Below, piece by piece: positions 1-54,217 of a stretch of DNA of 64,000 nucleotides. Position 1 is the stretch's first letter. Each line of letters starts with the position of its first letter. Origin of the DNA: Selaginella moellendorffii (lineage: Eukaryota > Plantae > Lycopodiophyta); NCBI RefSeq assembly GCF_000143415.4, contig NW_003314264.1, positions 746,014 through 810,013 on the forward strand, written 5' to 3'. Below the pieces are notes generated by a model. That model saw nothing but the letters and a program-made list of their open reading frames with translations. It was not told the DNA's origin and ran no database searches. Made by a program: the position numbers and the translations under genes.

Positions 1-3000
1 TCAATCGGTGTGGAGGACGGCCGGAAGCCCAATGATTTGAAGCTCAACGCCTTGCGTTTCTCGCGGTCTATAGACGACGACGACCTTCTGACAGTGGCTA
101 ATGCTCTTTTACGTGGTGAGGTAGTCTTCAACAAGACCAAAATGACTCCCGGCCATATTGTGACATACGAGGACTTGTGCACGACTCTGAGAGCTCGTGC
201 GCTATTGAAGGATTGGATCTTCGAGCAAGTGGCTGTAGAGAGGGTGAGCATCGATACCACGCAAGAGATGATGGAAGCGCTGGAGTTGTCAAATGAAGAC
301 ATCGACGAGTACGTGAAGGGGGCCCCCAAGTTCATCGATCAGCTGCGGGATGCCACGAAAAGTAAAGCTGAGAAGTTGGATCAGTATCCAAATTTCATTA
401 ATAGGGATGTCGACCGCCGGCTTCAGAAACAGCTCGACCCCGCAGCAGAGGCCTATCGAGAACCTTACTGGGTATACGTGAATTCGGATGAGGATCAAAG
501 GTGGAGGAGCATCGTTTCCCGTGGAGATGAGCAGGTCAAGAACATCTTTTGTGTGATGGACTTCACAAACGAGGAGATCACTCATGCAGACGAAGTCAGC
601 TCCATCATTGACTTAATGGTGGGACTTGCAGAGGTGGAATCTTCAGTCCACTATATGATCTACGAGTTCGAATCCTATCACAAGTTCTGGAAGGCCTTGA
701 ACGAGGTGAAGGCTCGGTTGAAAGGCAAGGAGATGCGGGAGATCCATGGGATAATGGCTAAGAAGAAGATACCGACGAATGTCCTCATCTTCAACCTCCT
801 GACTCAGATTCCTATGGCAGACTCCCCTTCCCCAATCTCAATGGAGAGGTACAATGGATGAGGGATGCTTTTCAAGTCAGGGCCACGTTTTTCTCATCTC
901 GTCGTCTTCGAAGGGTGCAAGAACGTGCAGAAACCATGTTAATACAGTCGGGTGAGGATACGGTCCTAGGTCACGCACTAAAACAGGCTATGGATGTCTT
1001 GTATTTTGAGATGGAGACTCGGCCAGATGATTTTCCCAAGATGGTCCTGGAAGAACAAGCCATCTAGCCTGAGCAGCCTATGGAAGAAATGCAGGAGGGG
1101 GATGAGGAGCCAGAGAAAGATAATGAGCAGGAAGAGCAGAAGGACGAAGAGGAGGACGAAGAAGAGGAGGACGAAGAGGACTTGGATGGTCCTCACAATG
1201 GTGACAATCACAATAATGACGACGACGATGATGACGACGATGGCCAGCCTGAGGTGGCCAAAGAGCAGCAGAGGAAGGTCATACAAGACAAACCATCAGG
1301 TAAATAATAGTACATCCATTCCTAACCTTTTACCATTTCTAACATTGTCCATGTAGGTCGCAGAGCAAATGGTAAGTAGAGATTATTCAGTTGAATTAAG
1401 AAACTCTAGCCTTTAGTGTCGAGGAAGGATAGTGCCAAGCAAGGGTCGAAACGTATGTCCAATCCTTCAGAATCAGCAGTGTGCCCAAGTGATATCGGTC
1501 CTAGTTCCTCAATAGCAGTTGATGGTAAATATAGTATAGTCGATTCAATGTGCTAATGAGTTTGTTTTTAGTAGCACGGGAGGATACCATCTCAATCGAA
1601 GGGAGATATTTGGACATGCATATGGATCCGCCAGTGGACTCTACTTGCCTGCAAGAGTCATCAGAGCTGGTGGAGGCTACTATCCATATCAACGCCAAGC
1701 AAGCTGACCACGCTCCACTTGATGCTGCCCATACCACTGAGTTAATCTTGTCCACGTATCCAACTAACGGTGACCAGGCGCCATTGGACCCGCATGAGGC
1801 CGCCCCAGCCGCCGAGCCGGTTGTATCCTCATTTCCAACGGACTCAACGTGTGCCCAATCGTCTGACTACGTGCCGTTGGAACCTCCCTACACCGCCCCT
1901 GCTGCCTGTTCAGTCATGTCCACTTTGCCAACGGAGGCACCAGCTGAAATGGCGTGTGATCACACGCCATCGAAACCACCGCATGCCACTGTTGAGCCAG
2001 TTGTACCAGAGTCTACAGCTGAAATGGCATGTGCCCACACACCATCGGATGTGATTGACCCCACATTGCAGAGGAGAGTATTTCTGCCCTTCACGTTTCC
2101 TCGACTAAAACCCTCTCAACGACCATCAGGGAGCACCATTCGCTAATATTGTAGATGGTAAAATTGACTTGTACCATTTTTTATGCTGACGCATTTCATT
2201 TCACAGTCACGGTGAAGGTACTGTATCGTTTTTGATCTGAACGGTGTCCTTTTCTCCCATGAGCGTGGCTCGTCCTCGAATGTCACTGCACCCTCCAAAG
2301 CCTGCGGTCGCAAGTTGGTCAAAAGAGACAGATTCACATTAATCACACGGGAGAAATTGCGGGATCTAATAATGACCATGCGACACTTAAAACAAAGGGC
2401 CGAGTTCAATTTGCAATTGGGAGTTTGGACATCCATGATGCGCCACAATGCATTAACGTTGCTACAGATGATGCACGATCAAACGCGAGTAATATTACCA
2501 TTTGACTTTCTCCTAACGCAGGAGGATTGCTTGACTATGGTCCATGTGAGGGGTAGCAAGCCCATCTTCGTCAAGCCAGAGACTGTAGTGATGAACCGAA
2601 CTGCTAGGTCAAGTGAAATCCTCATCATCAATGACTCGCCGATTAAAACTGCAGTGAACACGCACACATATGCAGTGCACCCCATCTCTTGCAGTATGGA
2701 AACTAGGGAGAAGAAACCGTATGTTCTGGGGGACCTTGCAAAACGGCTTGGAGCGATGGTGATAGAGAACCGGCCAGTCCAGGAGGTGGCTGCAGAAATC
2801 AACCAAATGGCAGATGGAACGGTATATCAGAAGCCATTTGATCGGACAGACACTAGTCATCATTTATGGCATGTATATTGTCTAGCCAAGCACTATCCGC
2901 ATCTCCATAATCTGCTCAACCAGATGGGTTCTTCGACCACTGAACATGAGCGTGGACGTATTAGAGAAGAGATGGCATTACTATTGGGTTTAAATCCTGA

Positions 3001-3046
3001 TAGTGTGGAGAGTGATGAAATTCCAAGATTATTGTATAGGCGTTAG
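1..3046 (+). pseudogene. Transposon cargo gene remnant (central region, acidic tract, C-terminal FCP1/SCP-like HAD phosphatase domain)
   Basis: ORFs 10-861, 858-1307, 1550-2146 and 2315-3046 match the cargo gene of the full copy. IVFDLNGVL at 2225-2251 is in frame with GVWTS, TQEDC, KPIFVK and IINDSPIK. Internal deletion and in-frame stops. Confidence 0.75.
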
Positions 3047-3509
3047 AGGCAAAAAATAACAGTCTGAGATGGCATGTATTTATTTAAAAATGTAACTTAT
3101 TATGGCATGGGGTTCCATGCCATTGTATTAATATTAAAAGACAATTCTTTGAGAGGATTTACATTATACTAGAAGTGTTACAGCATGTTATTGGAAGTCT
3201 ACGAAGTTATTTTATTAATAAGGGGAAAGTAAAGATTGAATGGGGACTTGGGCTCCACCTAGACTCGGAGCAATTGAGCCAATATTAAAAGGATGGAAAG
3301 AAATTGGACGACGATGACAAGGAGAAAAGAGAGGTGAAGCAGTGGCAGGGGGAGGAGAAGTGATTGAGTAGACATTTTCTTGATTAAAATAAAATGGCAT
3401 GTGCCTCAATGCAGTTGAATTTTGTTATATTTATATACTATATAAAGGTTTGGAAACCTTATTTTAAAAGTGGGATAATGACAATTCCCACTTTAACGAA
3501 ATAGAGCTT
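1..3509 (-). mobile_element. Terminal part of a second copy of the Sola-like TIR DNA transposon, inverted relative to 13973-24816 and truncated by the window edge
   Basis: Near-identical reverse complement of ~13973-19100. Ends in TIR ...TCCCACTTTAACGAAATAGAGCTT at 3509. Lacks ~1.6 kb present in the other copy (junction 793/794). Confidence 0.9.
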
Positions 3510-7239: not shown

Positions 7240-7755
7240 ACTTAGACTCGGTCTTAGTCTCGGTTTCAAACTCAAACTTGGGTCTCGGTCTCAGTCTCAG
7301 TCTCGATCTCGGTCTTGGTCTTGGTCTTGGTTCCATCTCCATCTCAGACTCCATCTCGGGTCCATCTCAAACTCCATCTTAGACTCCATCTTGGACTCCA
7401 TCTCAGACTCCATCTTAGGTCCATCTTGGACTCCATCTCAAGTCCATCTCGGACTCCATCTCAGACTCCATCTCGGGTCCATCTCGAACTCCATCTCGAA
7501 CTCCATCGTAGGTCCATCTCGGATTCCATCTCAGGTCCATCTCGGACTCCATCTCAGACTCCATCTCAGACTCCATCTCGGACTTCATCTTAGGTCCATC
7601 TCAGACTCCATCTCGGACTCCATCTTGGGTCCATCTTGGGTCCATCTTGGGTCCATCTTGGATCCATCTTGGACTCCATCACAAACTCCATCCCAGACTT
7701 CATCTCAGGTCCATCTTGGACTCCATCTCCAACTCCTTTTTGGACTCCATCTCGA
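7240..7755. repeat. Tandem repeat inside the LTR: 6 bp GTCTYG units, then 11-12 bp GACTCCATCTCR/GGTCCATCTYG units
   Basis: Directly visible; about 35 copies of the CCATCT core between 7333 and 7755. Confidence 0.9.
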
Positions 7756-8757
7756 GTCCTCTTATGTCCCTTTTTTAGAGACTCACTTATTGCTCGCTTC
7801 ATGCTCATTCCTCAAGCACTTTGTTGGGAGTTCCACTCCTGCTCTCAACTTTTCGAGTCGGAGCTTTTAGTCTAAATGTGTTATGTTCATTTGGCTCCCA
7901 TCTCAGCCACTACCACATGGCACACTTTTGGCTCCTCTTTGGGACCTAGGGATTTTGTGTCTCACAACTCCACCACCCATAAACGAAGTTTGATGTCCTC
8001 ATTGAATAATAAACCATTTTATAAAGTAACATTAGCATGTATTACCCTTTTCATTCTTAGCACCAAGCCAATAATCATTGATGGTTTGTCACTGAAGGCT
8101 CTCCATGCCTTTCCTATCCTCTATGAAGTATAGTCTCTCCAACTTAGAGACTTATTAAGCCATTTATGGTGGTCCTTCCCCTTTTCTTTATTTAGTTCAT
8201 GCTAAACTTGTTAGAGACACCTAATCTATTTTGACTATTCATTCAGGAGTAGTCTCGGCCTCTACTAGCATAACCATCGCACTTTGGAACTTTTAATTTT
8301 GATTTCTCAAAGTCAATTTCATAGATGTCTCTGACATCTTGCATTGCACGTGTTGTGCAAATTGCATTTCCCTATCCTAAAAAGTTCCTTACTTAACAAA
8401 ACCATCATCCTCTCTTCTATTTTGTGTTACTCTAGGCACTAAGTTTTACTTTTCCATAATTTGTGCTAAGGTTGTCTACAACTTTATCATTTGGCTACCT
8501 TGCCACTCCCTCCCTTAGAACTTTCACCTTTGCCAAATTGGAGCATTTGGGAATCCATCCACAAAAACATATTTTCTTTCCCATGATTTGTTAACATCCA
8601 ACACATAAGTGTTCCTTGCTCAATTTTGTTGTTTGGATTTCTTCCAATGATTTTCATGGCCCAAACTTGGCCACTAGTCATTTGCTCCTATTCATTAATT
8701 GTTGCACTAAATAACATAGGATCATTATCTCCATCCTTGATGTATTCTTTTGGTTCC

Positions 8758-13968: not shown

Positions 13969-14394
13969 GGAAAAGCTCTATTTCGTTAAAGTGGGAATTG
14001 TCATTATCCCACTTGTAGAATAAGGTTTCCAAACCTTTATATAGTATATAAATATAATAGAATTCAACTGCATTGAGGCACATGCCATTTTATTTTAAAC
14101 AAGAAAATGTCTACTCAATCACTTCTCCTCCCCCTGCCACTGCTTCACCTCTCTCTTCTCCTTGTCATCGTCGTCCAATTTCTTTCCATCCTTTTAATAT
14201 TGGCTCAGTTGCTCCGAGTCTAGGTGGAGCCCAAGTCCCCATTCAATCTTTACTTTCCCCTTATCAATAAAACAACTTCGTAGACTTCCAATAACATGCT
14301 GTAACACTTCTAGTATAATGCAAATCCTCTCAAAGAATTGTCTTTTAATATTAATACAATGGCATGGAACCCCATGCCATAATAAGTTACATTT

Positions 14395-17300
14395 TTAAAT
14401 AAATACATGCCATCTCAGACTGTTAGTTTTTTGCCTCCAACGCCTATACAATAATTTTGGAATTTCATCACTCTCCACACTATCAGGATTTAAACCCAAT
14501 AGTAATGCCATCTCTTCTCTAATACGTCCATGCTCATGTTCAGTGGTCGAAGAACCCATCCGGTTGAGCAGATTATGGAGATGCGGATAGTGCTTGGCTA
14601 GACAATATACATGCCATAAATGATGACTGGTGTTTGTCCGATCAAATGGCTTTTGATATACCGTTCCATCTGCCATTTGGTTGATTTCTGCAGCCACCTC
14701 CTAGACTGGCCGGTTCTCTATCACCATCGCTCCAAGCTGTTTTGCAAGGTCCCCCAGAACATACCCTAGTTTCCATAGGGGTGCACTGCATATGTGTGCG
14801 TGTTCGCTGTAGTTTTAATCGGCGAGTCATCGATGATGAGGATTTCACTTGACCTAGCAGTCCGGTTCATCACTACAGCCTCTGGCTTGACGAAGATGGG
14901 CTTGCTACCCCTCACATGGACCATAGTCAAGCAATCCTCCTGCGTTAGGAGAAAGTCAAATGGTAATATTACTCGCGTTTGATCGTGCATCATCTGTAGC
15001 AACGTTAATGCATTGTGGCGCATCATGGATGTCCAAACTCCCAATTGCAAATTGAACCCGGCCTTCTGTTTTAAGTGTCGCATGGTCATTATTAGATCCT
15101 GCAGTTTCTCCCGTGTGATTAATGTGAATCTGTCTCTTTTGACCAACTTGCGACCGCAGGCTTTGGAGAGTGCAGTGACATTCGAGGACAAGCCACGCTC
15201 ATGGGAGAAAAGGACACTGTTCAGATCAAAAACGATACAGTACCTTCACCGTGACTCTGAAATGAAATGCGTCAGCATAAAAAATGGTACAAGTCAATTT
15301 TACCATCTACAATATTAGTGAATGGTGCTCCCGATGGTCGTTGAGAGGGTTTTGGTCGAGGAAACGTGAAGGCTGAAATACTCTCCTCTGCAATGTGGGG
15401 TCAATCGCATCCGATGGCGTGTGGGCACATGCCATTTCAGCTGTAGACTCTGGTACAACTGGCTTAACAGTGGCATGGGGTGGTTCCGATGGCGTGTGAT
15501 CACACGCCATTTCAGCTGGTGCCTTCGTTGGCAAAGTGGACATGACCGAACAGGCAGCAGGGGCGGTGTAGGGAGGTTCCAACGGCGCGTAGTCAGACGA
15601 TTGGGCACACGTTGAGTCTGTTGGATATGAGGATACGACCGGCTCGGCGGCTGGGGCGGCCTCATGCGGGTCCAATGGCGCCTGGTCACCATCAGTTGGA
15701 TACGTGGACAAGATTAACTCAGTGGTATGGGCAGCATCAAGTGGAGCGTGGTCAGCTTGCTTGGCATTGATATGGATAGTAGCCTCCACCAGCTCTGATG
15801 ACTCTTGCAGGCAAGTAGAGTGCATTGGCGGATCCATATGCATGTCCAAATATCTCCCTTCGATTGAGATGGTATCCTCCCATGCTACTAAAAACAAACT
15901 CATTAGCACATTGAATCAACTATACTATATTTACCATCAACTGCTATTGAGGAACTAGGACCGATATCACTTGGGCGCACTGCTGATTCTGAAGGATTGG
16001 ACATACGTTTCGACCTTTGCTTGGCACTATCCTTCCTCGACACTAAAGGCTAGAGTTTGTATCTTAATTCAACTGAATAATCTCTACTTACCATTTGCTC
16101 TGCGACCTACATGGACAATGTTAGAAATGGTAGAAAGTTAGGAATGGATGTACTATTATTTACCTGATGGTTTGTCTTGTATGACCTTCCTCCGCTGCTC
16201 TTTAGCCACCTCAGGCTGGCCATCGTCATCATCATTGTCGTCATCGTTATTGTGATCGTCACCATTGTGAGGACCATCAAAGTCCTCTTCGTCCTCCTCT
16301 TCTTCGTCCTCCTCTTCTTTGTCCTCCTCTTCGTCCTTCTGCTCTTCCTGCTCATTATCTTTCTCTGGCTCCTCATCCCCCTCCTGCATTTCTTCCATAG
16401 GCTGCTCAGGCTGGATGGCTTGTTCTTCCAGGACCATCTTGGGAAAATCATCTGGCCGAGTCTCCATCTCAAAATACAAGACATCCATAGCCTGTTTTAG
16501 TGTGTGACCTAGGACCGTATCCTCACCCGACTGTCTTAACATGGTTTCTGCACGTTCTTGCACCCTTCGAAGACGACGAGATGAGAAAAACGTGGCCCTG
16601 ACTTGAAAAGCATCCCTCATCCATTGTACCTCTCCATTGAGATTGGGGAAGGGGAGTCCGCCATAGGAATCTGAGTCAGGAGGTGGTGACTGGCTGCTTT
16701 CACTCAGCCCTTGATCTGCAATGAATGGCATGAGCACACACGCCATAACCGCGAGGCATTACCTATCATCTTTTCGTTGCCCTTCTTCCTTTTCGAATCA
16801 AAGGCCTCTGATCCCGACGACTGTCCAACGTGCTTTCGCTTTTTATGACCACTGTCAATTTGAGCTTGATCTGCAAGAAATGGCATGAGGACCCACGCAA
16901 TAACCATGACGCTTTACTTCCCGTCCTTGGAGGCTCTGTCGTGCCTTCTGCATCCTCAGGTGCCTGCTCCTCAATTCCCTTTCTCTTTCGTTTCTTATGC
17001 GCCAGTTCTACAGAAATAGCATGAGGACATACGCGATAAGCACACAAATGCTTTTACCCTTCCTCCTCTGCCCTAGTCGGTTGTCCATCTCTTTGTCTAC
17101 AGCGTCTGAAAGCTGTTTTGCAGGTAGCCTAATTCGAGGTTCATGACGTCTCCTTGGCACTTGAACTGTATACTATTGCATCAACACATGCAACATCCCA
17201 CAATATTTTTAAGTTACCTTTCATAAAGTTTTCCATTGGTTCAACTCGTTCCCCTGAAATACAAACTTAGATAAGTGCATGGGGCCATATGTCATGATCG

Positions 17301-19892
17301 TACCTGTTTCGGAACTCTCCTTATCACTCTCCAAGGCCTCCCCCTCCTCCACTGGAGGCACGTTGTTCCGTTCGATTTCCTCGACTCGATCTGCAAGAAC
17401 ATTAGTTAATTGCGTGGGGCCACACGCCATCAAACCTTCAGGTTCTTGTCGTGAGGTCTGCACTACTTGCCCTAGTCTCTTTGGAATTTGAGCTGCAAGA
17501 AGCAATGGCATGAGAATTCACGTATAACAAAAATGATTGGTACCTCTTGTCCGTTGTACTTGGCTGGTGCTTGCCTGTTTTGCCTTTGAAGAAGTGTCTC
17601 CTGCAAGGAATGGCATGAGACCACACGCCATTGCAAATATAATTTGTACCTCCTTTTTTCCTATTGCTTGTCTGTTTGTCCTTCTTCGATGCGCCACCAG
17701 TGCGCTTTTCAGTCCTCGTGTCTGAATATTCACAACGATCTATAATCAAAATGGCATGAGGCCTCACGTGACCTTACCTTGTGCAGGTTGTGAGCTCGGC
17801 CCAACATGGGTATCTTCAACAGTAGCTGTTAACGCCGTTTCAGCATCTGGGGGTGGCCACGCTCCTACATACAGAGCTTGTGAGATAACATTTAAACTTA
17901 AAGTGCGTACTCACCAGGTTCGCAGAGAAGATACTGTTTTTCTTTGGCAACTGTAATTATATGCTCCATTGAAGTCACCTCTTCAATGGAGTTTGTCACC
18001 GCAACACACAGGACACCCTTGAGTAGTGCGGCTCGAAAGAATAATCCGCCGCAATTGTACTCGACAACGCATTTGCCCTTGGAGTCGGAAGCAGGTGACC
18101 CACCCGCTATTGCGTTGAAGACCCAGCTGAGCATTTCCCATGCTGCACCTGGAGCTTTCTTTGGATTCGAAAGTTCCATAGCCGTCTTCAGTTCCTCAAG
18201 CACGGGTAAATTGACTTCCCTCAGATCAATTCGATCGGTCTTGTCGAACGAAGCTGGGAAGTCACTCCAGTCCCACTCTGCTGCAGGACCAATAACAAGG
18301 GTGAGTGTGAAGATGCGGACATTCGTCGGTATCTTCTTCTTAGCCATTATCCCATGGATCTCCCGCATCTCCTTGCCTTTCAACCAAGCCTTCACCTCGT
18401 TCAAGGCCTTCTAGAACTTGTGATAGGATTCGAACTCGTAGATCATATAGTGGACTGAAGATTCCACCTCCGCAAGTCCCACCATTAAGTCAATGATGGA
18501 GCTGACTTTGTCTGCATGAGTGATCTCCTCGTTTGTGAAGTCCATCACACAAAAGATGTTCTTGACCTGCTCATCTCCACGGGAAACGATGCTCCTCCAC
18601 CTTTGATCCTCATCTGAATTCACGTATACCCGGTAAGGTTCTCGATAGGCCTCTGCTGCGGGGTCGAGCTGTTTCTGAAGCTGGCGGTCGACATCCCTCT
18701 TAATGAAATTTGGATACTGATCCAACTTCTCAGCTTTACTTTTCGTGGCATCCCGCAGCAGATCGATGAACTTGGGGGCCCCTGTCACGTACTTGTCGAT
18801 GTCTTCATTTGACAACTCCAGCTCTTCCATCATCTCTTGCGTGGTGTCGATGCTCACCCTCTCCATGGCCACTTGCTTGAAGATCCAATCCTTCAATAGC
18901 GCACGAGCTCTCAGAGTCGTGCACAAGTCCTCGTATGTCACAATATGGCCAGGAGTCATTTTGGTCTTGTTGAAAACTACCTCACCACGTAGAAGAGCAT
19001 TAGCCACTGTCAGAAGGTCGTTGTTATCTAGAGACCGCGAGAAACGCAAGGTGTTGAGCTTCAAATCATTGGGCTTCCGGCCGTCCTCCACACCGATTGA
19101 GTTTAGCAACTCCCTGTCATGGTACCTCCTTAGCACATCTACCCATTTGTCAAAAACAACTTTTGTCGCGAGTAGAATGTTATGGATGCTGAGTGTGTCA
19201 TTGACCCCTAGTGTTTTCGAGAGAAGACTCAAGAATTCCTGCAATGGAAATGGCGTGAGGCCGCATGCTATGCCACATGCAACGAGGCTTACCTGCCAGG
19301 CACTAGTTGCTAGTGCACGTCCTTGTCCTAGTTTTTGTGGCTTCTTCAGTTGAACCCAGAGCTTCCGTGTTCGTGCCAATGTCTCGTGCAGACCCGATTT
19401 GTAGCACGTTTCTTGCTTGACATTCTGCGCGTGGGAGATGTATATGATAGATCGGAGGGGCGAGTTGCCTTTTATCAGGTGGACAACTCTTGTCTTGAAG
19501 ACTTTCTTCACCTCCTCACCCACCATAATATCCACAACTATCTCTTGCATCGCCAAGCTAGAATGCTGCCCGGAGACGGCATAGAACCGGATGTTCTGAT
19601 CGTCCAACACCTTCCTATTGATCAAGTCTGGAAACCTCGTCTCGCCCTTCATTGTTCGGTAGTAGGGGATCACGTCTGCGATGTCGGGTGTTACTGGACT
19701 TCCCAGCATCTTCTACTTCAGTTTCTCCACCCACTCATCAGATACTAGCCTGTGGTACGACAGCAAAGTCTAGAAGCTACTCAGTTTGAAATTTGTCAGA
19801 GGAATCATAAGATCTGGTTTGTCAGAGGATTTGATGTGACGTTCAAGCGTGTGTTATTTTTGAATTCTCGAACTCATTCCTAGGTCTATCAT
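14395..19892 (-). pseudogene. Multi-exon transposon cargo gene: ParB-like, MTase-like, acidic/low-complexity and FCP1-like phosphatase regions
   Basis: Same-frame ORFs 19709-18411 and 18404-17898 are split by a TGG>TAG change (TGG in the other copy). Many GT-AG micro-introns. Motifs FYAVSGQHS, VVEYNCGG and DLNSVL...IIDDSPIK. Confidence 0.7.
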
Positions 19893-20363
19893 TTTTGTGC
19901 GCCGTGTTCTTGGTTCCGCTAAGCGCAGTGAGCGCTGCTTGTGTAAGCGGCGTTGTGAGCTGTGGTTTATGCATCTATGAGCGGTTGCGGCATTGCGAGC
20001 GCCATTGCGAGCGGCAGTTTATGCGAGTGGCAGTTTGTGCGAGCGGCACTACGAGCAGTTGCGGTGGTGCGAGCGGCGCTACGGTACCACTAATGGTATG
20101 AGGGCTCATGCCATCTTGGGGCTTGCAAGTTCATCACTAGCATATTGCCAATAGTTTCTTTACTTGCCTATAGCTGTGTGTTTATCAAGATGGCATGAGG
20201 CCTCATGCCAATTTTGTGAATGCGAAATTTCACGTGGGTGTCAATAGCATATTTGAATAATGGCATATGGCCTCATGCTATTGAGGTTGTTTGGTATGTT
20301 ATGATTTAGGCCATTCTCCAATCATTTTTTGTATGGTCTTAACTTCTTTTCTGCACTTTCAGA

Positions 20364-23189
20364 ATGGCCTCCGCAAGTGCGACGCATGTTCCCTCCGTGG
20401 ATCTTAAGAACCGTGCTACATGGATTCAGGCAAAGGTGTTTCTAAACAACCCCGAGGGGGAGGTGGTAGCTGAGGGCTTAGCCACAGTTGTCGATCCAAG
20501 AGATGCGGTTGCTAATCAAGAATTGGGCTACGATGATATTGGAGTTGCGATTTTAGAGGTTGTTGACACAGAAGAAAACAGTCTGACTATTAGAAGCATT
20601 GTGCGGTGGAAATTGAGGCACTTAGTGTTTGAGAATGTGAAGGATTCACACTCAAACACCACTACAACTGATGACAGAACATCTCTTCATGGGAAAAGAA
20701 AGTACACCTTCCTAAAGCGCAGCCAAAGGGATCTGAGCAACAAACCGAAAAGGCAGAAAATGGCGATGGAGGTTCGAATTGTCTCGACAGTTGCTTGTTG
20801 CAAGAGGAGGTGCTGTCAACATGCTGATTGGGATGCTATTGAAGAGGAGAGAGCAAGATACAAGACATTGTCCTAGAAGGCAACTCGCAATTTTGTGTAT
20901 GAGGCATTACGGTCATCTGTTGATGCTTCAGAACATCAGGTGGGGGGGATGGTCTTCCAGAGGGGTTTGGTCTACATGAAGGCATGGAGAATCATTTATG
21001 GAGTCCCTCAAACCACATTCTACAGAATCAAAACTAAGTTCGAGGAACAAAGGGTTCAACAGGCAGTCCATGGGAACAACGGTACTCACAAAACCAGGGG
21101 TCATGTTGTATATGGAGAGGCAATCTTCAAGAGGTTTGTCGAGACATGTAGCGAGCAGCAACCACATAAAACCCGCCTCTTGGAAGATGGAACTCGAGAC
21201 ACCCAACAAGTTCTCCCTTCCATGTATACCAAGGGGGCCATATTGGAAGATGTGAATCGGGAACTCCAGAGTAATGGCTACAAGAAGCTGAGCCAATCTA
21301 GATTTAGTAGATTGTGGAGCAACAGGTTCAGGGATGTGAGTATAGGAAAGTACTCCAGCTTTTCAAAGTGTGACGAGTGCATTGCTATCAAAATGGCTTT
21401 GTCGAAGAATTCTTGCATCGCTCAAGAGTGAGAGACGTTGGTTAGAAGGCGGCTCGACCACAACATCGAGCAGAGAAGCTGCAGGACTGCATATTATCAT
21501 AACAAGATTCTCTCCATGGAGAGACCTGACTCTTACCTCTGCATCATCCACGACAAAATGGACCAGAAAAAGACGTGCTTACCTCGACTCAATCCTGCCC
21601 CCAAGGCAATCTCTTCATCCATGCAGCTGCCTATGTCTCTGTTTGGCATAATCGCTCATGGGCATGGTGCCCAGAACTATGGGAACTTCTTTGTACCTCT
21701 ATGGGGTGGCGGGGGTGCAAACATGATGATTGCGTCCCTAGCAAAACACTTAAGGTCTCTGCAAAGTGCGCAGACTGAGCTGAATGGCCAACCCTTGCAT
21801 AAGGCCCTTGTCAATCGAACCCCATACAGGGTTCAGCTGGAGGAGGAGGAAAGGCTTGCAGTATTGCATGGGGCCCCATGCCATCCCAGTGAATATGTTG
21901 GCCGTCAGATTGTAGAGTTATTAGGTGAGGCCTCATGCCATTCCGACGAGGCTGGTCACCCGGTGAATGCACAGCCTCATCCAAACAAAGCAGAATCTCA
22001 AGGAAGTTCTTGCGGCCGATGTGGCCTTCCACCCCATCTTCTGCTCCAAACAGACAATGCTGGCAGTGAGAACAAAAACATGTACGTCTTCGCGTACTTG
22101 GCGATGCTTGTTGCCAAAGGCATATTTGAAACGGTTACACTTGGCTTTCTCATGGTTGGGCACACTCATGAAGACGTCGATGCCATGTTCAGTCACCTGG
22201 CAGAGTCCCTCCGGCGATCCAATGTCCTCACCCTCCTACAACTCTACGATGAATTCCAAAATTGCATCAAAGGCACTGTTGAAGCTGCACTTGTGACAGA
22301 GGTTCCAGACTTTAAGGGGTTTGTAAGAGGCTACATTAGAAACGGATTTGAAACGCTGTTTGGCCACTCCAAGCCTCTTCAGTTTCATTTCAGCATGCGT
22401 GACGATGCCCCAATGATGAGGTACAAGATGAGAGAATGGGACACAGTGTGGCTGCCAGTGGACGGCATTGAACTCTTCAAGAGAGATCCCATAACTGGGG
22501 AACCTATGATTCCTTAGGGTTCCCCACGGCCGATGCACCCGGATGGACTCAAAGACCAGGAAAGTATAGTGGCCGGGATTAGACAGCATATTGCCTTCTG
22601 GAAGAGGGGGTTGGTGTTTGGTGGAGAATCCTATTTTCAGAGGTGCAAGCCTTTGCTCGAATACTGGGAGAAGATTATATCTGCTATCCAAAATGGGCCG
22701 GTTGTATATGAAGAATTGGAAGAGTCCTTTTGGCCAGAACCCAGAGCACCAGATAGTAGCAGAACAATGTCCTCTGGAAATGCAGTGACAAATAACGATG
22801 TTGAGGATTACTATTGTGGGCCGAGGAACAAGAAGCTGGATTCAGCATTCAATCCAGTACAGGTTTGCAAAGGAATGGTCGTGCTTGTCAGACCCAGTAA
22901 TAAAAAACAAATGATATAGGTGGGGCGCTGCATCACTGATGCAGAGGAGGACGCGGAAACTAACTCCTTCAATGTAACTGTGGAGTGGTTCAAGCCAAGT
23001 TCCGGATATATGAAGGATTGCCTAGAAAAGAGATGGGTGCTGAATCCAAGGGATCCCAATATGAGCATATCGGTGGATAATGTTGTGCATGGTTGGATGT
23101 GGAAGCAGAGTGCCACCATCACCTTGCCAGACCATGCAAGAGATGCAGCAAGAGCATTCATAACCCGGGTTCAAGGTGAGATTCATTAA
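20364..23189 (+). pseudogene. Sola-like DDD transposase (DUF7869-type core), ~940 codons with four in-frame stops
   Basis: Five consecutive ORFs share one frame. Motifs SKCDEC, IIHDKMDQKK, LQTDNAGSENKN and FLMVGHTHEDVDAMFS. Confidence 0.85.
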
Positions 23190-23902
23190 TATTCCTTTAC
23201 TAAGTTTCTAATGTATTTTATTTCAAGGTGAACAATCCGAATCTGAATCAGAGGAGGCGTGATGGCATGTGGCCTTACGCCATTCCTAGGTGAGATGATA
23301 CAAATAACAAGTATAAATTCTTAGTTGTTCTAGCAAATCTTACTTAAAGTTCAAGGTGAACAAGCCAAATATGAATTCATCGGATTGTTATAACAAATTG
23401 CGAGGTGATGGCATGAGGCAATACGCCATTTGAGAGTGGTAGCCATTCCTATATGAGGTGAGTGAAATATTTATTAGAAATACCTCATTCAATTGTGCAC
23501 TTCTAAGTCTTGGTCCACTCAGTACTGTTTGCATGTTTCTATTTTAATTCTTTCTCTAAAATGTTATTTAGCATGTGGCTTCATGCCATTGCTCTCCACA
23601 ATCATGCATTGAATTTTTCTATCCTTGCATAATACTTCTCCATATATATAGCATGTGCGCACATGTGATATGGTTCATTAGGCCTGATATAGTGTGTGAG
23701 GTAAAACAAAGATGATGTGACATATGCATTTACCAATCACACGTGCATAAATCTAATAATATGGCGTGTGGCCCATATTAATGGCACATAAACCCATATT
23801 GTGGGCTTACGTGCTTTATGTACCATCATTCCCTTGCAGCGTGTGTGTTGGTTTCCTTTTATAACACAACGAACTCCATATTTTAGGGTGAAGAGCGTTC
23901 TC

Positions 23903-24160
23903 ATGGCAAGCACAAAATCTGTAAGTGAGGCAGAAAAGGAGATGGAGAAGGAGATAGGTGAAGATGTAGAATATATAAGTCTTCCAAACTCCCCGTACTA
24001 TACTCCAGGTGATCATTTTTCTGAACAAACGGCAACATTAACAACTATCGAGAACGCCCTAGTAACGTCAAAGACAACAATCCAAAGCAAAACAACTGAC
24101 CCGGAGAAGGATGATAGTACCGCTGAGAGTACCAAAAAGGAGGTGTCCACTAGCGCTTAG
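23903..24160 (+). CDS. Small acidic/Thr-rich hypothetical ORF inside the DNA transposon
   Basis: Open frame MASTKSVSEAEKEMEKE...; no recognisable domain; may be a downstream exon. Confidence 0.3.
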   Translation: MASTKSVSEAEKEMEKEIGEDVEYISLPNSPYYTPGDHFSEQTATLTTIENALVTSKTTIQSKTTDPEKDDSTAESTKKEVSTSA

Positions 24161-24820
24161 GCTTATAATGGCGTGTGCCCTCATGCCATTTACTTGATCA
24201 CCAAATACCTTTTTCCCTTTGCACTAGTATATCTTAATACCGGTCTGAGAAATAGAATGGCATGTGCCCTCAGGCCTTTTACTAAATCACCTTTGAAATA
24301 AATGCAAGCCTCTATGTCGTAAAAAAAAGGTACTAGAGAAATTCCTTAATAACATGAATGTTATTTAGTTTCATGAAAATACACTAAGGGTCAAATGAGT
24401 TAAATGACTTCTCCAGACTAGCAATGCCTCTTGCTACACCTTCACAATTAGATTCGTTAGAAAAAGATAACATTGAATAATATCTAAATGTTCTCACCAT
24501 TAAGTTATATGTCTGGCTAATAGGAATGACGTTCATCTTGGAAAGCTCACCACACGCTCAATGAACAAATAGTGTGTGTGCGCATGCCATCGCTCTTCTT
24601 TAGCTTCAGATTCGGCTTGTTCACCTTGACAATGAGATTTATTATACAACCAAATGGACTCAGTCTGGACACAAAGTCACCGTGCTAGTCACCATGCCCT
24701 AGATATGTCTAGCCCCTGGACAAAAAACATATAATTTCACGTCATTTTTAAATACTTGAAAATTTGTACCTAGTCCCATTTTACTGAATAAATCCCACTT
24801 TAACGAAATAGAGCTTGGAA

Positions 24821-29020: not shown

Positions 29021-29303
29021 TAGACTCCATCTCGAATTCCATTTTAGGTCCATTTTGGACTCTATCTTAAACTTCTTCTTGGACTCTATCTTGGGTCCCT
29101 CTTGTGTCCCTTTTTTAGAGATTCATTTATTGTTTGCTTCGTGCTTATTCTTCGAACACTCCGTTGGGAGTTCCACTTCTGCTCTTGACTTTTCGAATTG
29201 GAGATTTTAGTCCAAATGTGTTACACTCATTTGGCTCCTACTTCAACCACTACATAGCACCCTTTTAGCTCCTTTTTGGGGCCTAGGGATTTTATGTCTC
29301 ACA

Positions 29304-36225: not shown

Positions 36226-36517
36226 GCCTTGGTTGCTAAAACTATATGAGAAGCTCCGCAATAGTTTATTTTGGTTGAATTTAACAATGACATAGGAATA
36301 CAGAAATATACATAGCCTATGTACAGGAGCGGCAAGAATCGCAATATTATTTCGAACCACGTGGAGTAATATCCATTTATCTATATAGAACTTTACAATA
36401 ATTAAACCAAGCAGAATCAAATATAATTCTTTTCGCATATCTCTTTTAGCCCCTGCATTTTAGGGTTTCTCTTTTAACTTAGGGGACTTAGAGGAGGAGG
36501 AGGAGAGATCTCTGGCG

Positions 36518-39129
36518 ATGGATGGAAGCGGCAACTCGCTCGCCTCGGGGCCGGAGGGGCGGAGCAAGCGCGTCGCCTACTTCTACGACCCCGAGGTAGG
36601 GAACTACTACTACGGCCAGGGCCACCCAATGAAGCCGCATAGGATCCGGATGACCCATTCCCTCCTCGTCCACTATGGCATTCACAACAAGCTCGAGGTT
36701 CTCAAGCCCCTCCCCGCCAAGGACCGGGACCTCTGCCGCTTCCACGCCGACGACTACGTCGCCTTCCTCCGGGTCATCACTCCCGAGACGCAGCACGAGC
36801 ACTTGCGCGCGCTCAAACGATTCAATGTGGGCGAGGACTGCCCGGTTTTCGATGGCTTGTACTCGTTTTGCCAGACTTATGCCGGTGGATCCGTCGGTGG
36901 CGCTGTCAAGCTCAACCATGGTCACTCGGACATTGCGGTGAATTGGTCTGGTGGATTGCATCACGCGAAGAAGTGCGAGGCCTCGGGGTTTTGCTACGTC
37001 AACGACATTGTTCTTGCCATCCTGGAGCTTCTCAAGTACCATGCTGTAAGTTTTTCGTGGTTTTCTCTGTCGAGAGAGAGTTTTATAGCTACAAAATTCT
37101 TTCCTATGCTTGTTTGTGTTTTTCTTTGTTCTCTTTCGGCAGTAGTTCTCTCGCTGTTGCAAAATACCTTGTTTTTTCCTTACTCCTAAAGCTGCTACAA
37201 GCTTCTCTTGAGTTCTCATCCTTCAATGCTGCTACAAAGTTTCTCTCGTACTTGCGCTTGTTTTCACTTTGTTGCATAGCCACAAAGTTCTCATGGCTCT
37301 TTCTTGTTTCTCTTTCCAGCGAGTTTTGTACATTGACATTGATATACACCACGGAGATGGTGTCGAGGAGGCCTTTTACACCACAGACCGTGTCATGACC
37401 GTCTCCTTCCACAAGTTCGGGGACTACTTCCCCGGAACCGGGGACGTGAGGGACATGGGACACGCCAAAGGGAAATACTATTCTCTCAACGTCCCGCTCA
37501 ACGATGGCATCGACGATGAGAGCTACCATTCTTTGTTCAAGCCGATCATCACCAAAGTGATGGAGGTTTTCCAGCCGGGGGCTGTCGTGTTGCAGTGTGG
37601 AGCCGACTCGCTGTCCGGGGACCGGCTTGGATGCTTCAACCTGTCGATCAAAGGCCACGCTCAGTGTGTTAAGTTCATGCGGTCTTTTAACGTTCCGTTG
37701 CTGTTGCTCGGAGGCGGAGGCTACACAATCCGCAACGTTGCTCGGTGCTGGTGTTACGAGGTTTGTACGACTTGAGAAACAAGCTCTCTTTTACTTTGGT
37801 TTCTTGATTAGAACAACACCTTGCCTTGCAGACTGCTGTTGCTGTAGGCGTGGAGCTAGAGGATAAAATGCCATACAACGAGTATTACGAGTACTTTGGC
37901 CCGGATTACACGCTCCACGTTACTCCGAGCAACATGGAGAATCAAAACTCGGCTCAGTACCTGGAGTCCATAAGGTCTGATTTCATTTTTTACTTCTCTG
38001 TCCTTGAGTACGATGTCTTTGTATTCACTGAGTGCACAGGAATCGACTCCTGGAGAACTTATCGAATTTACAGCATGTACCAAGCGTACCATTCCAGGAG
38101 AGACCACCTGATACTGATCTTCCAGAAGAGGTCTCCCTCTCTGTGGCTTCTACATGGTGAAAAGCTGAGAAGTTGTTTATAACTGTAGGAGGAGGAAGAC
38201 CTCGATACGCGTGAGAAAGGTCGGGCTTACTCAGACTCGGAGTCTGAGGAAGACGAGCCTCGCAGGAGTCGTCACCAAAGTCCTAACGACGCTGCCATAT
38301 CCAGGTTTGCAAACAAACAAAGCCGAGCATCGTCATACTTTCGTGCTCTCTTTCTTTATCTTTCTTTATCTTGCGTTGAGCTAATATCAAGTGTCCGGCT
38401 GCGTCTTTTACAGGCGACAATCACCCTCGGCAAGAGATGACCGCATCAAAAAGGAAAAAGAAGAACTTATGGTACGAGGACAATGAATTTTCTTATTTCC
38501 TTGCTTCTGACGGGACTATTATATCTGTGTGAAGGACGAAGGAAGTGATATCGACGGGGATCTACCCAAGGCTCAGCAAGAACCTCAAGATGACCAGGTT
38601 TATATACCTCTCTCTAGATTCTATGGCTGAAAAACCACCGAAAACAACAACAAAAACCATTTTTTGGCAGCCGACTGCGATGGAAACCGATGCCAAAGCC
38701 GAGGAGAAGTGCTCGTCCTTGCTCCCGGATGCACCCTCGGCCCCCCTGGCCTCGTCCGCGGACACAGCGCACGAACCAAACGAGCAGAGCACGAGCAACA
38801 CAAATTGGCAACTTGTGACGACCTCCACTGCTGCTACGGCCGCAGCGATGAATGCTCGAAGTCCATTAGCTCCTCCCGCTCTTAATCAAGCTCCCCCGAG
38901 CTCGACAGCCATCGCCACTGCTGCTTGGACGCCTCCAACTTCTGCCACAGTCGTAGCTCGGCTGCCTCGATTCTCCGCGAGCTCTGGAGCTCCAGTTGCT
39001 GCCACTGTCACTGCCACCGCCACGGTTACCGCTGTTACGAGCTCCACAGTGGCGAATTCTCCAGCTCCAGCGCCAGTTCCAGCGGCTCTAGCTCGTGTGA
39101 CCGAAGCTCCCACACCAATGACTCCTTAA
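36518..39129 (+). CDS. HDA19: Class I (RPD3) histone deacetylase, HDA19-like, multi-exon
   Basis: [92 protein letters not shown]. The 3' exons are less certain. Confidence 0.93.
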
Positions 39130-44669: not shown

Positions 44670-44955
44670 CTAGAAAATCTCGAGAGAGAAGCGAAGGGAC
44701 GAGAAGAAGAGGCGCGGCGCTCTTGGCGGGCGAGCAAAGCGCCAATGCAGCCACAAGAAGAAAGAGAGGAAGGTTTAAGCCGAGAAGAAGAAGAGATATT
44801 AACCTAAACGAGCTTTTAAGCGACGAGATTCGAGACCGCGACCTCCTGTGGTAGGTGGCGTGGCGCAGTGAGTCGTTTCAGCCAATGGAAAACCATCTAG
44901 TCAAACATTGAGAGCCAAAATTGTCCACCATGGTCTCCACATTTTTGACAATAGC

Positions 44956-47004
44956 ATGAGATTAGCTGCCAACGTTGATGGTACGCTAAAGTCCTTTGTT
45001 TCGCTAGTAAATTCTTGCTCCATTAACAGAGATTTGCGGGCTGCAAAGCTAGCGCATCTACAAATCTTGCAATCCCCACACAGAAACGACCGCTTTCTGG
45101 CAAATTATCTGATCAAAATGTACGGCAGGTGTGGTAGTGTTGAAAATGCAAGAGATGCTTTTGCCAGCATCAAAGACCCAAACTTGTTTTCTTGGAGTTT
45201 GATGTTTACAGCAGTTGCCCAGAACCGGCATTTAGAGTACGCTCTAGAAATCTTCCATCGAATGCCAGAGAGAAACCTAGTGATTTGGAACACACTAATG
45301 CTCGCTTACTCCGATATCTCGCAACACGATATAGCGGAGAATATCCTGAGCATAATGCCCGAGTGGGATATCGTGTCCTGGAACTCCATGCTCCAAGCAT
45401 ATGCCAAAAAAGGGTACCTGGAGCGCGCAAAGATTCTCTTCGACGACATGGGCGAGAGGGACGTGGTGTCGTGGACGACGATGATATCCGCATATTCCTC
45501 GTGTGGGCTCGTCCACGATTCCTTGATGCTCTTTACGAAGATGCCAGGGAGGAACCAGGTATCTTGGAATTCCATCACGCACGCGTTTGCTCTCAATGGC
45601 TGCGTGGGCGATGCCAAGCGCTGCTTCGATCGGATGCCCGAGCGCAATCTCATCAGCTGGACGGCGCTGGCTGGCGTCGATCCGGAGCTCGCGATGGAGC
45701 GGATCCCGGCGTGGCCGGGCGCGTCAATTCTGGGCTTGATCTCGGGCTATGGAGAGGCCGGGGAGCTGGACAGAGCCCTGGCGATCTACAGCGCCATTCC
45801 GGGCGAGGATCTGGAGCTCTCGACTAGCATGATCCACGCGTATGCGCGCAATGGGGAGCTGGATCCGGCGATGGCTTTGTTCGATCGAATGCGGCAGCGG
45901 GATCTCGTGGTGTGGTCGCTCATGGTGTCGGCGCTCGCGCATCACGGGCGATTAGCGGCTGCCGGGGATTTCTTCGCCAGGATGCCCGAGAGGAGCATCG
46001 TGGCCTGGAGGGCGATGATCCAGGGGCACGCGCAGAGCGGGCGATCGCAGGATGTCGCGAGGATTTTCGAGGATCTGCCTCAGAGGGACGCTCTCTCCTG
46101 GACATCTTTGATCGTCGCGCATGCCAATTGTGGGGATCTCGCGAAAACAAGGCAGTGCTTTGAAAGATCTCCCGAAGTAACGGTGGTAGCGACTTGTGCT
46201 ATGATCAGTGTGCTTGGAAGGTACGGTCATGTAGAAGAGGTCAACCTATTATTTAAATCCGTACCAAACGAAGATCCAATGGCTTGGACTGTCGCTATAA
46301 CCACAAATGCCAAGTGTGGGCATTTAACTAACGCAAAGACCTTGTTTGACAAAGCGACAAAGAGAGACGTTAGGGTATGGGATGCCATTATAGGGGCATT
46401 TGCACAAGAAGCGTATTTAAGCAGGGCGTTAATTGTGTTTAGCAAGATGCCATGTTGGGACGTAGTAGCCTGGAACACCATTATCACCGCAAATGCCCTC
46501 AAGGGGCATCAAGAGGAAGCGTTGGATTTCTTCGCGATTATGCCCCAGAAGAACGTGGTGTCGTGGACGGTCCTGATCGCCGCGAATTCCCACGCGGGAA
46601 GGTGCAGGGACTCCATCGCGATTCTCCACTCGATGCAGCAGTGTGGATTCCTCCCCGACGACACCACATTCACGATCGTCTTGCTCGCGTGCGCTCACGC
46701 GGGGCTCCTGGACGAGGCGCGCTGGTGCTTCGAGCTCATGGTGCGCGACTACTCGATCCAGCCCACGCGCGAGCACTTTGGATGCCTGATCGATGTGCTC
46801 GGCAGGAGTGGATCGCTGGGCGACGCCCAAGCGCTCATCGATGTGATGCCCTACAGTGCCGACAATGTGGCGTGGGGGATGTTCCTCAGCGCTTGCCGGC
46901 TGCATCGCGATGTGATTGGAGCCAATTGCGCGGCGGATCGTGCCATCGAATTGGCGCCCACCATCTCTTCCTCGTATGTGATGCTCGCGAGCTCTCTGGT
47001 TTGA
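44956..47004 (+). CDS. PLS-class pentatricopeptide repeat protein with E domain (no DYW)
   Basis: Intronless ORF with repeated ERNLVSW-type short PPR motifs; ends HFGCLIDVLGRSG...WGMFLSACRLH...SSYVMLAS. Confidence 0.92.
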   Translation: MRLAANVDGTLKSFVSLVNSCSINRDLRAAKLAHLQILQSPHRNDRFLANYLIKMYGRCGSVENARDAFASIKDPNLFSWSLMFTAVAQNRHLEYALEIFHRMPERNLVIWNTLMLAYSDISQHDIAENILSIMPEWDIVSWNSMLQAYAKKGYLERAKILFDDMGERDVVSWTTMISAYSSCGLVHDSLMLFTKMPGRNQVSWNSITHAFALNGCVGDAKRCFDRMPERNLISWTALAGVDPELAMERIPAWPGASILGLISGYGEAGELDRALAIYSAIPGEDLELSTSMIHAYARNGELDPAMALFDRMRQRDLVVWSLMVSALAHHGRLAAAGDFFARMPERSIVAWRAMIQGHAQSGRSQDVARIFEDLPQRDALSWTSLIVAHANCGDLAKTRQCFERSPEVTVVATCAMISVLGRYGHVEEVNLLFKSVPNEDPMAWTVAITTNAKCGHLTNAKTLFDKATKRDVRVWDAIIGAFAQEAYLSRALIVFSKMPCWDVVAWNTIITANALKGHQEEALDFFAIMPQKNVVSWTVLIAANSHAGRCRDSIAILHSMQQCGFLPDDTTFTIVLLACAHAGLLDEARWCFELMVRDYSIQPTREHFGCLIDVLGRSGSLGDAQALIDVMPYSADNVAWGMFLSACRLHRDVIGANCAADRAIELAPTISSSYVMLASSLV

Positions 47005-50337: not shown

Positions 50338-50435
50338 GCATTGGGAATATTCTCCAGGTCCAGCTCAAAAAGAATCTTTCAATGACCTTTTAATGTGACG
50401 TTTCTTGCAGTATGGGAATTAGGGCTTAATGCGCG

Positions 50436-52970: not shown

Positions 52971-54217
52971 TCAGATCATCAAGCCTGGTAAGTCGTCGTC
53001 CTCCTCGTCAGTATCAAACTTCTCACTGTCAGGTGCGTAGCTTCTGTTTTGGAGAGCTCTCTTTCTCAGCACGTAGACGTTAAAGTAGTAGCTTACCAGC
53101 TCCTCCCGGCTCCTCCTTCCCGCGAAGGAAGCTTGGAGGTCCGGCCAAAGCTTCTCCTCCTTGTCCCCGCGGCAGCTTCTCACGATCGCCGCAAACTCAG
53201 CTTGCTCTTGCCTGCTCCACTTGGCCGACTTGATCAAGCTCTCCCCCATTGAGTGAAACCCCCACTCGCGGAAGACGTCATCTCCCAGCTCGAGCTTGAG
53301 CTTCCTGCGTTGCTCGTTGACGTGTAGCTTCACAGAGTCTTCCGAGCTATCGTCCGCGCTGAAGCACGTACTAGCGGTATGGCTTCGGCTTCCCGCCACC
53401 CTTTTGGACCAGACCACTCTTCCTAGAAAGAGCTTTGAGTCATCGTCGTCGGCATGGAGAGCCACAGTGGAAGGAACTTTGGCTTGAAAGCTTGGTCCGA
53501 TTGGGACGCTCTCAGGCTCCGAGGAACTTGGAGGCTGAGGTTTGGGTCGAGGTGTGAGAGAGCGAAGGCTATACTTGGAAGGTCGTCGTGCTCTAGTGTT
53601 ATCGTATCTCTGTACGTAAAAATACATACGAAGACGTCAGTTAGTTATTAAATGACATAAACCATTGGATTGATTAATTGTACCTTTTGGTGGTTGTCTT
53701 GCCTCTGGAGGCGACCCAAGAATGCCCTGATTGTAGCTTGGAATTTCCCACTGTCCCCTTCACGGAGGGCTGCATTTCCTGGATCCAGAGCCAGCTTCCT
53801 CAAATGGGCCAGGGCCTCTTTGACATGAGAGTGAATTGGAGGCTTTAAGGCCTCTTTGACATGAGAGTGGATTGAAGGCTTTTCATTTGGATCAACACTG
53901 GCTTTGGTGACATTTGCAGATGTAGCACCAGCACCAAAGACCCTGCCACTCTCAAAAGCCTTGAGGTACTTCAGATAGACTAACTTGACACTAGGCCCAC
54001 AATGTGGTGGCAACCCTATTGAGGCTGCCACATCCCCCCACTTTCTAGACCCACTAGTTTTAGAGTACCCACCTGACTCTTTCACCTTGTCTAGCAAGAG
54101 TGCAAGGTTCACCTTATTACCTGCTATGAATACTGGAAGTGGTCTCTGCCCAAGTGCTCTTCTAGCTTGTAATGCCCACTCAACCTCCTTCTCAAATGCA
54201 TCATTTCTAATTTCCAT
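52971..54217 (-). CDS. ARID-ELM2-SANT protein (plant ARID1/ARID2-like); 5' end uncertain
   Basis: ARID (VNLALL...VKESGGY...KWGDVA...Y.KYL), ELM2 (IGPSFQAKVP), LKLELG...WGFHSMGE, and ELVSYYFNVYVLRKRALQNR. Confidence 0.85.

Follow-up and report, generated by a model that had tools for sequence, protein, structure and literature searches.

A 22-bp palindrome dispersed through a decayed DNA transposon of Selaginella moellendorffii, lineage-specific palindromes in its relatives, and a possible role in self-recognition

Why should a decayed transposon carry one long palindrome again and again, in its predicted introns, between its genes and toward its ends? The question is raised by a 64,000-nt stretch of Selaginella moellendorffii DNA (contig NW_003314264.1, positions 746,014 to 810,013; designated as the window, with position 1 its first letter), in which a decayed DNA transposon with terminal inverted repeats (TIRs) occupies 10,844 bp (copy 2; 13973-24816). 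Copy 2 encodes a DUF7869 transposase (20364-23189, + strand; PF25273, E=1.8e-42; four internal stops) and, divergently from it, a second protein designated as the cargo (15304-19892, − strand; in-frame stops from decay). The palindromes recur in copy 1, an inverted partial copy that is ∼96% identical and is without the stretch equal to 16685-18307 (1-3509, + strand), and in a 286-bp miniature inverted-repeat transposable element (MITE; 55758-56043) with related TIRs. The palindromes are a real, lineage-wide feature. Tentatively, and at somewhat less than even confidence, we read them as family-specific self-recognition sites for a dimeric cargo protein, which would keep family copies active against silencing.

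An earlier reading of the letters alone (the sequence-only reading) had described a 22-bp palindrome, dispersed through the whole element, with conserved arms and a variable N6 spacer of fixed length. All 26 positions that it listed hold the motif within 1 nt and with 0 to 4 mismatches; two coordinates were corrected (21921 to 21920 and 23569 to 23568), and the perfect 20-mer starts at 20191. Across the window there are 8 exact matches, 17 with at most one mismatch, 23 with at most two and 30 with at most three, and 29 of these 30 lie inside the two element copies or the MITE. Scanning 7-bp arms with spacers of 0 to 15 gave 19 sites for spacer 6, one for spacer 11 and none for all others, and the fixed length therefore stands. 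A profile scan of copy 2 returned 24 sites above 8 bits versus a mean of 0.46 and a maximum of 3 in 100 Markov simulations; a chance origin was rejected. The same profile gave one site above 8 bits and none above 12 bits in the 49,346 bp outside the family, in agreement with the earlier remark that the motif had not been noticed in retroelements or host genes. In cross-validation, a profile derived from the 12 right-hand sites recovered 12 of 13 left-hand sites and the reverse direction recovered 12 of 12; outside the family, the half-trained profiles gave no matches above 10 bits. Counting the weak site at 17505, the element holds 25 palindromes. Those at 14067, 17274, 23648 and 24569 are additional to the earlier list, as is that at 3394 in copy 1, where the others lie at 1949, 2024 and 3102.

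The N6 spacer, by contrast, is not variable in the sense proposed. Position 10/13 is G/C in 88% of sites and 9/14 is A or T in 76%, so the middle six bases are not free; the centre is palindromic as well, the consensus is ATGGCRTGWGGCCWCAYGCCAT, and a free N6 was rejected. At position 17756 the other copies read G, and part of the R/Y variation in the palindrome can thus be ascribed to CpG decay. No match was obtained in Rfam, and neither the palindrome motif nor the transposase was found in viral contigs.

Twenty-one of the 25 palindromes are non-coding, with nine in predicted introns and 12 in intergenic or flanking DNA. The latter comprise 14067 and 14359 between the left end and an FCP1-like frame (14067-14380), 20093, 20190 and 20260 between the divergent genes (20093-20281), and seven downstream of the transposase at 23262, 23408, 23568, 23648, 24168, 24257 and 24569 (23262-24590). 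The four coding sites occupy the low-complexity cargo tail (15414 and 15489; 15414-15510) and a transposase loop whose length and sequence differ from homologue to homologue (21863 and 21920; 21863-21941). Eight sites (16725, 16880, 17016, 17274, 17409, 17505, 17610 and 17751; 16716-17777, − strand) each lie inside a predicted phase-1 intron of 38-51 nt, and the site at 19250 lies in a predicted 54-nt intron (19239-19292, − strand). Thus 9 of the 11 sites in the cargo span fall in predicted introns, though these make up 9% of positions. Neither this placement nor the lineage-specific palindromes of relatives described below had been picked up in the sequence-only reading.

The introns are inferred from reading frame and homology, not RNA. 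Fifteen GT-AG introns of 38-57 nt were picked by eye, 14 of them assigned to the cargo gene, and the choice was partly guided by the reading frame. When the first 14 are removed, the frame from 19709 to 15306 keeps one internal stop (TGG in copy 1) versus 35 unspliced, and when 13 candidate introns were drawn at random 20,000 times, no draw opened the frame; because of the frame-guided choice, this test overstates the case. Two checks are independent of it. The homologue P0014 reads WQ|EF exactly across the predicted 19239-19292 junction. In contig runs X2, X4 and X7, all of one sample, the dominant variant is missing 694 nt (window 16865-17558), and 399 nt of these are exonic under the intron model, in frame; this form drops five palindromes and has a depth of ∼70-95 versus 4-7 for the full form. 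The deletion in copy 1 is out of frame. Of the 9.2 million reads in each of RNA runs X8-X10, 1, 0 and 4 mapped, none of them spanning a joint; X12 gave none. These counts are uninformative either way. All seven acceptor-near sites supply a branch-like CTCAY 15-19 nt upstream of the acceptor, so the palindrome may double as a branch point; the two intronic sites farther from the acceptor have a separate branch-like motif. Introner elements are near-identical introns with terminal repeats. Here, pairwise intron scores, palindrome included, range from 0.35 to 0.81 and intron ends differ, and an introner origin was rejected.

Arm covariation bears on whether the palindromes act as DNA or as RNA hairpins. 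Over 27 sites, complementarity was observed 12 times versus 14.1 expected from independent half-sites at pair 6/17, 11 versus 12.9 at 3/20 and 12 versus 9.3 at 9/14 (P=0.16). The lack of covariation favours a double-stranded DNA site, with a protein reading two half-sites. The earlier suggestion of a site for a dimeric protein fits this result together with the fixed length and the symmetry to the centre.

Relatives come from a metagenome scan in which 419 loci had a related transposase; the best 80 were kept, and 60 remained after duplicate removal (loci are labelled L001 and so on). A palindrome family of its own, ∼18-24 bp in length, is present in 30 of the 60. Many palindrome-less loci have less than 600 bp of flank, and L012, L042 and L067 show no family despite more than 1 kb of flank on a side. 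In a seed-free test, palindrome families of 5-11 members were found near the transposase in seven loci, compared with at most three members in simulations and at most two in 11 control pieces of the window. Ten loci have their own palindrome at four or more sites: TTTGGCCATATGGCCAAA in L001 (10 sites), AGGCTCAAAC-N4-GTTTGAGCCT in L002 (6), CGTCGGCTGCCCGCCGACG in L010 (7, with fixed mismatches kept), TTCCACTCGACCGAGTGGA in L011 (4), TTCCAGTCGACCCACTGGAA in L014 (12), CCCACGGGTG-N2-CACCCGTGGG in L016 (10), TTCCTCTCGGCCGAGAGGAA in L021 (6), TTACGAACG-N2-CGTTCGTAA in L044 (12), and further palindromes in L041 and L024 (∼5 each). A further clade shares AYRCYTRGTGGCCACYARGYRT, at four or more sites in 20 of 23 loci; counted per kb, its sites number 2.26 in the 3 kb upstream of the transposase, 0.91 in the 3 kb downstream and 0 in the 29.6 kb covered at a distance of 6-12 kb downstream. 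Relatives' palindromes are single and dispersed or tandem in units of 22-49 bp, and several are symmetric to the centre, with no loop. The motifs follow the transposase tree (FastTree with midpoint root, 46 chosen loci and 7 proteins). The locus counts exclude the 41 AT-rich matches of L080, the AT-rich seed of L074, the GAAGGCGA tandem of L023 (10 kb from the transposase), L063 (8 weaker matches) and the two-site seeds of L004, L007, L037, L042 and L079.

Three side observations concern these loci. At L065:7582, L074:10868, L029:10562 and in six more loci, the transposase gene contains one palindrome at a conserved AT-rich position, which in the AYRCYTRGTGGCCACYARGYRT clade is probably an intron. 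Tandem units of 46 bp, with two different palindromes each, occur at L027:1884-2856, L058:5408-6100 and L017:4466-5300. Tracts of plant telomere-like TAAACCC lie in or adjoin related elements at L014:100-160, L069:2155-5350 and L021:3040-3060.

Which protein would read the palindromes? The element ends carry a motif of their own. Copy 2 has 27-bp TIRs starting AAGC and a 4-bp target site duplication (TSD), GGAA; the evidence for GGAA comes from this one insertion, and the TSD of the MITE is imperfect. The insertion site is a Ty3/gypsy pol frame, which becomes continuous after removal of the element and one TSD and whose flanks encode aspartyl protease and RNase H. The left end (13973-14014, + strand) has TGGGA at TIR positions 20-24 and an inverted TCCCA 10 nt on; the right end (24773-24816, − strand) has TGGGA at the same positions and a second, direct TGGGA. 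In 701 kb, TGGGA-N10-TCCCA was matched exactly 7 times, in every case at an apparent element end, versus 5 matches for a spacer of 7 and 0-2 for other spacers, and the terminal TGGGA at positions 20-24 is also found in the distant L011/L014/L021 group. This motif is the likelier transposase site. In L011, L014 and L021 the TIR ends and predicted DNA-binding helices are near-identical, yet the palindromes differ, which speaks for recognition of the end motif by the transposase and of the palindromes by another protein. The sequence-only reading had assigned the sites to a ParB-like cargo protein or to the transposase; the same two observations favour the cargo, and its ParB-likeness is unconfirmed. 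Note that the copy 2 transposase is without the N-terminal segment found in P0020 and in a loose X1 contig end (window 20364-20372), and that P0003 shows the same loss. The transposase has no MULE match, and PF26133 is precomputed on two homologues.

The cargo has a possible ParB-like N-terminus (SGQHS), a helical region, a degenerate beta-class methyltransferase-like region and a low-complexity acidic tail. Named homologues come from Selaginella moellendorffii, Calypogeia and Riccia, which, taken with the very short introns, would indicate a non-seed plant and probably a lycophyte. SGQHS is present in P0001, P0012 and P0013, and L065 has SGQHI. A ParB-like fold is only hinted at: Pfam gave no ParB match, the predicted models have mean pLDDT values of 47 and 61 (for P0012, 61, with the N-terminus below 50), and structure searches gave no match at E≤0.001 or Z≥5. 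The rows for 7bnr_A (ParB; Foldseek with P0012, E=2.4, rank 24), 1r71_A (KorB; Z 3.7, rmsd 4.1, 108/114 aligned) and 8qa8_A (KorB; Z 3.5, rmsd 3.7, 98 aligned) are within noise. The earlier suggestion of parS-like loading with CTP is undercut further by the GxxR arginine for CTP binding, which is absent in all four covering homologues (equivalence to the box was judged by eye). With this arginine absent a CTP clamp is unsupported, and a plain dimeric DNA binder is the safer inference. No ParA-like partner ATPase was found among the element frames scanned.

The methyltransferase-like region, in the C-terminal part of the folded region, matches PF01555 in P0013 (E=2e-4, below cut-off) and has M.RsrI as its top match (E=0.024); the catalytic (D/S)PPY motif was not found in P0001. 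An FCP1/NIF-like HAD domain, broken in copy 2 (14398-15256, − strand; PF03031, E=2.5e-6), has its second catalytic Asp replaced (DLNS/GV), and its frame is either the cargo C-terminus or a separate gene. The cargo gave no match to DUF1985/DUF287 or 2OG oxygenase domains and none in word-based searches; PHROGs, NCBIfam, phage and plasmid searches gave weak rows at best, some to methyltransferases. Atlas neighbours of P0012 are fungal DUF3723 clusters (0.92-0.93, 143-151 shared features), to be taken as a lead only, and a search with residues 1-170 of P0013 gave nothing. DUF3723 is also mentioned in Starship papers, and the two accessory proteins might conceivably be linked. P0010 and P0014-P0016, encoded by named Selaginella genes, represent a cargo homologue that is shorter, with neither the SGQH region nor the acidic tail; it may have been domesticated, or the gene model may be truncated.

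Among the relatives, a cargo homologue is encoded on the opposite strand, in the divergent position, at L065/L071 and L069 (E 2e-4 to 6e-4), which are distant in the tree. L065 has the SGQH motif, an intron-like insert at the same place and an FCP1-like domain at the same position, with eight palindromes in the cargo tail region and six between the genes. The palindrome of its clade is 22 bp long and has the core GWGGCCWC in common with that of copy 2.

Self-recognition by the cargo is favoured because the sites are confined to the family and mostly non-coding, because palindromes differ by lineage and the ends have a separate motif, and because cargo beside transposase recurs in a distant clade. 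A cargo dimer would bind the 22-bp palindromes as double-stranded DNA, presumably through its helical region, and would use them to recognise own-family copies and counter host silencing, as VANC does for VANDAL. The outcome could be activation or methylation loss, as suggested by the acidic tail, by methyltransferase and CTD-phosphatase-like domains that both look dead, and by the VANC and TnpA precedents. Site number would have grown by tandem duplication. Cargo-less copies, the MITE included, would be served in trans, and a few master copies acting in this way would explain the rarity of cargo, as with the Spm1 copy in the available passages of 10.64898/2026.08.24.746577. Several points weigh against this proposal. 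A cargo homologue stands beside 2 of the 60 non-redundant loci, with FCP1-like pieces in two more, and none was found in L023, L074, L058, L054, L029, L022 or L021 despite palindromes and several kb of upstream flank. The ParB-like fold is unconfirmed (SGQH motif and sub-threshold 7bnr and 1r71/8qa8 rows), and the per-locus profiles are partly circular, having been seeded on the loci that they score. There is no CpG-protection footprint (CpG o/e of 0.62-0.69 within 300 bp of sites versus 0.58 beyond), and copies 1 and 2 diverge by 2.7% near sites and 2.9% far from them. Eight of nine intronic sites can pair at 6/17 on the transcript strand, six via G-U, which suits an RNA hairpin. A basic stretch in the transposase varies among L011, L013, L014 and L021 and keeps the transposase as a possible reader.

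It is unlikely, if by no means far-fetched, that the palindromes are bound, for activation or transpososome assembly, by the transposase or by a spliced product of its gene that includes the N-terminal TnpA-like repeats. Of 60 loci, 30 pair the transposase with palindromes and two pair it with cargo; L021 combines long TIR-like arms and six sites with no detectable cargo; the MITE keeps two sites beside its ends; P0020, one of eight transposases, has a Transposase_23 match (E=0.014, below cut-off); and, in the available passages of 10.64898/2026.08.24.746577, transposases and TnpA act as sequence-specific activators. Yet the motif conserved at the element ends is a different one, the palindromes change although TIR ends and predicted DNA-binding helices hardly do, and TnpA and the AtMu1 transposase bind termini in those same passages whereas the palindromes here run through the interior. 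We think it improbable that the cargo, instead of opposing silencing, folds or bridges the element for transposition or represses its own genes KorB-style. Two sites kept in a gene-less MITE, the absence of a methylation footprint and the weak KorB and ParB rows of the fold searches would suit such roles, but the fast lineage-specific change of sites suits a host conflict, the acidic tail would suit activation, and many copies are without cargo.

A role in RNA, with hairpins over the branch point tuning cargo transcript splicing, is very improbable. The CTCAY supplied by all acceptor-near sites and the G-U-compatible orientation of six of nine intronic sites speak for it; on the other side, compensatory covariation is absent, 16 of 25 sites lie outside modelled introns with two more in the MITE, in several relatives the symmetry of the sites runs right to the centre and leaves no loop, L010 keeps fixed mismatches, and orientation bias can stem from duplication of one ancestral site. 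Least probable, in our judgement, is a reading in which tandem duplication produced the repeats neutrally or a host factor binds them. Tandem arrays in many relatives, two introns that are ∼81% alike, and differences between copies 1 and 2 inside palindromes (1/88 versus ∼2.8%, not significant) are compatible with it. Against this, the palindrome persists while flanks diverge (most intron pairs score 0.35-0.67), a length of ∼22 bp recurs in many lineages, each with its own sequence, and palindromes are absent from 49 kb of non-family DNA and from the 29.6 kb far downstream of transposases.

How does the element compare with known systems? Bacterial ParB/parS and KorB/OB have repeated palindromic sites of 13-16 bp. 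Repeated palindromes, an N-terminal motif placed like the GxxR box and weak structural rows are held in common; the sites here are 22 bp, GQHS is without the CTP-binding arginine, and there is no ParA-like gene among the scanned frames. The Sola superfamily combines a 4-bp TSD, short TIRs and an acidic-triad transposase, features that recur here, and on its 4-bp TSD the element may be Sola-like. En/Spm elements have CACTA termini and a 3-bp TSD, whereas the ends here start AAGC and the TSD is 4 bp. General Sola facts are given in passages of PMC9033089, PMC5751038, PMC4455052, PMC3845634 and 10.1101/2021.09.26.461848; Sola1 has the TSD AWWT (PMC3845634), not GGAA, and no divergent cargo or internal palindromes in Sola turned up in the literature searched.

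The closest functional parallel is VANDAL/VANC. In the available passages of PMC5735166, VANC21 binds a 9-bp motif in introns and intergenic and terminal regions, with tandem-repeat growth and differences between families; RdDM is the opposing force (PMC10398659, in part). In both, family-specific motifs occupy introns (those of the accessory gene included) and the non-coding DNA between genes and at the ends, multiply as tandem repeats and diverge quickly from one related family to the next, and the exon-intron structure of the accessory gene is dynamic. However, motifs there are 8-9 bp versus ∼22-bp palindromes here, the transposase there is Mutator-type versus DUF7869 with a 4-bp TSD and no MULE match, DUF1985/DUF287 is unmatched in the cargo, and binding and demethylation are shown there and proposed here. 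The element thus appears to work like VANC, yet is not a VANC family member. In the main-text passages of 10.1101/2025.02.11.637652, PAG3 of red-algal Plavaka (EnSpm) has inverted-repeat arrays beside a ParB-like accessory gene, and self-binding is proposed. A weak ParB-like N-terminus joined to an enzyme-like domain (the ParB likeness unconfirmed here), adjoining inverted-repeat arrays and the same structure, 7BNR (best HHpred match there, the weak Foldseek row here), are alike; transposase type and host group differ, a 2OG oxygenase there contrasts with methyltransferase-like and FCP1-like domains here, and the sites here are dispersed singly into introns. Those passages hold no lineage comparison of the Plavaka repeat, and the supplements may describe the repeats more fully. 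TnpA and the AtMu1 transposase are activators that bind at termini (10.64898/2026.08.24.746577, in part). An element-encoded sequence-specific activator, clustered family-specific motifs and trans action (proposed here) are shared with them, while ∼10-bp terminal motifs there differ from internal palindromes here. Other plant or algal methyltransferases, without this element, appear in passages of 10.1101/2021.02.12.428880 and PMC4738411. The literature covered, outside which lie subscription journals and Repbase, yielded no account of this element family or of its palindromes.

Sequence-specific self-recognition against silencing has, in that literature, been shown only for Arabidopsis VANC, TnpA and AtMu1 and proposed for red-algal Plavaka. 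If true here, non-seed plants would add an independent example, in which both transposase and reader are unrelated to those already described. Long palindromes are legible from the letters in at least 11 lineages, which makes reader/site co-evolution, DNA binding by eukaryotic ParB-like domains and the fit of sites into ∼47-nt introns testable, and orthogonal site-reader pairs could find use in transgene targeting. Doubtful, in our estimate, is a bolder idea in which a land-plant transposon lineage made a bacterial or phage ParB-methyltransferase fusion into a clamp. Once loaded at parS-like palindromes, the clamp would spread along its element and rewrite the chromatin there, with site and protein re-coded family by family; some relatives would perhaps write 4mC or 6mA. 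Eukaryotes would then have a ParB/parS system, and the families would form a naturally orthogonal series of ∼22-bp address/reader pairs.

Several minor features complete the window. The MITE palindromes, at 55800 and 55973, adjoin its terminal motifs. Between the divergent genes of copy 2, 19960-20083 holds a short repeat of GCGAGCGGC type, which an X1 contig continues with more units. Downstream of the transposase, a 122-codon acidic low-complexity frame (23792-24160, + strand) has no Pfam match. Outside the family, an 11-12 bp tandem repeat lies among retroelement-like repeats at 7283-7769, with a short echo at 29022-29110, and host genes at 36464-37189, 44872-47004, 48376-50364 and 53648-54247 correspond to a histone deacetylase domain, two PPR genes and an ARID-domain frame.

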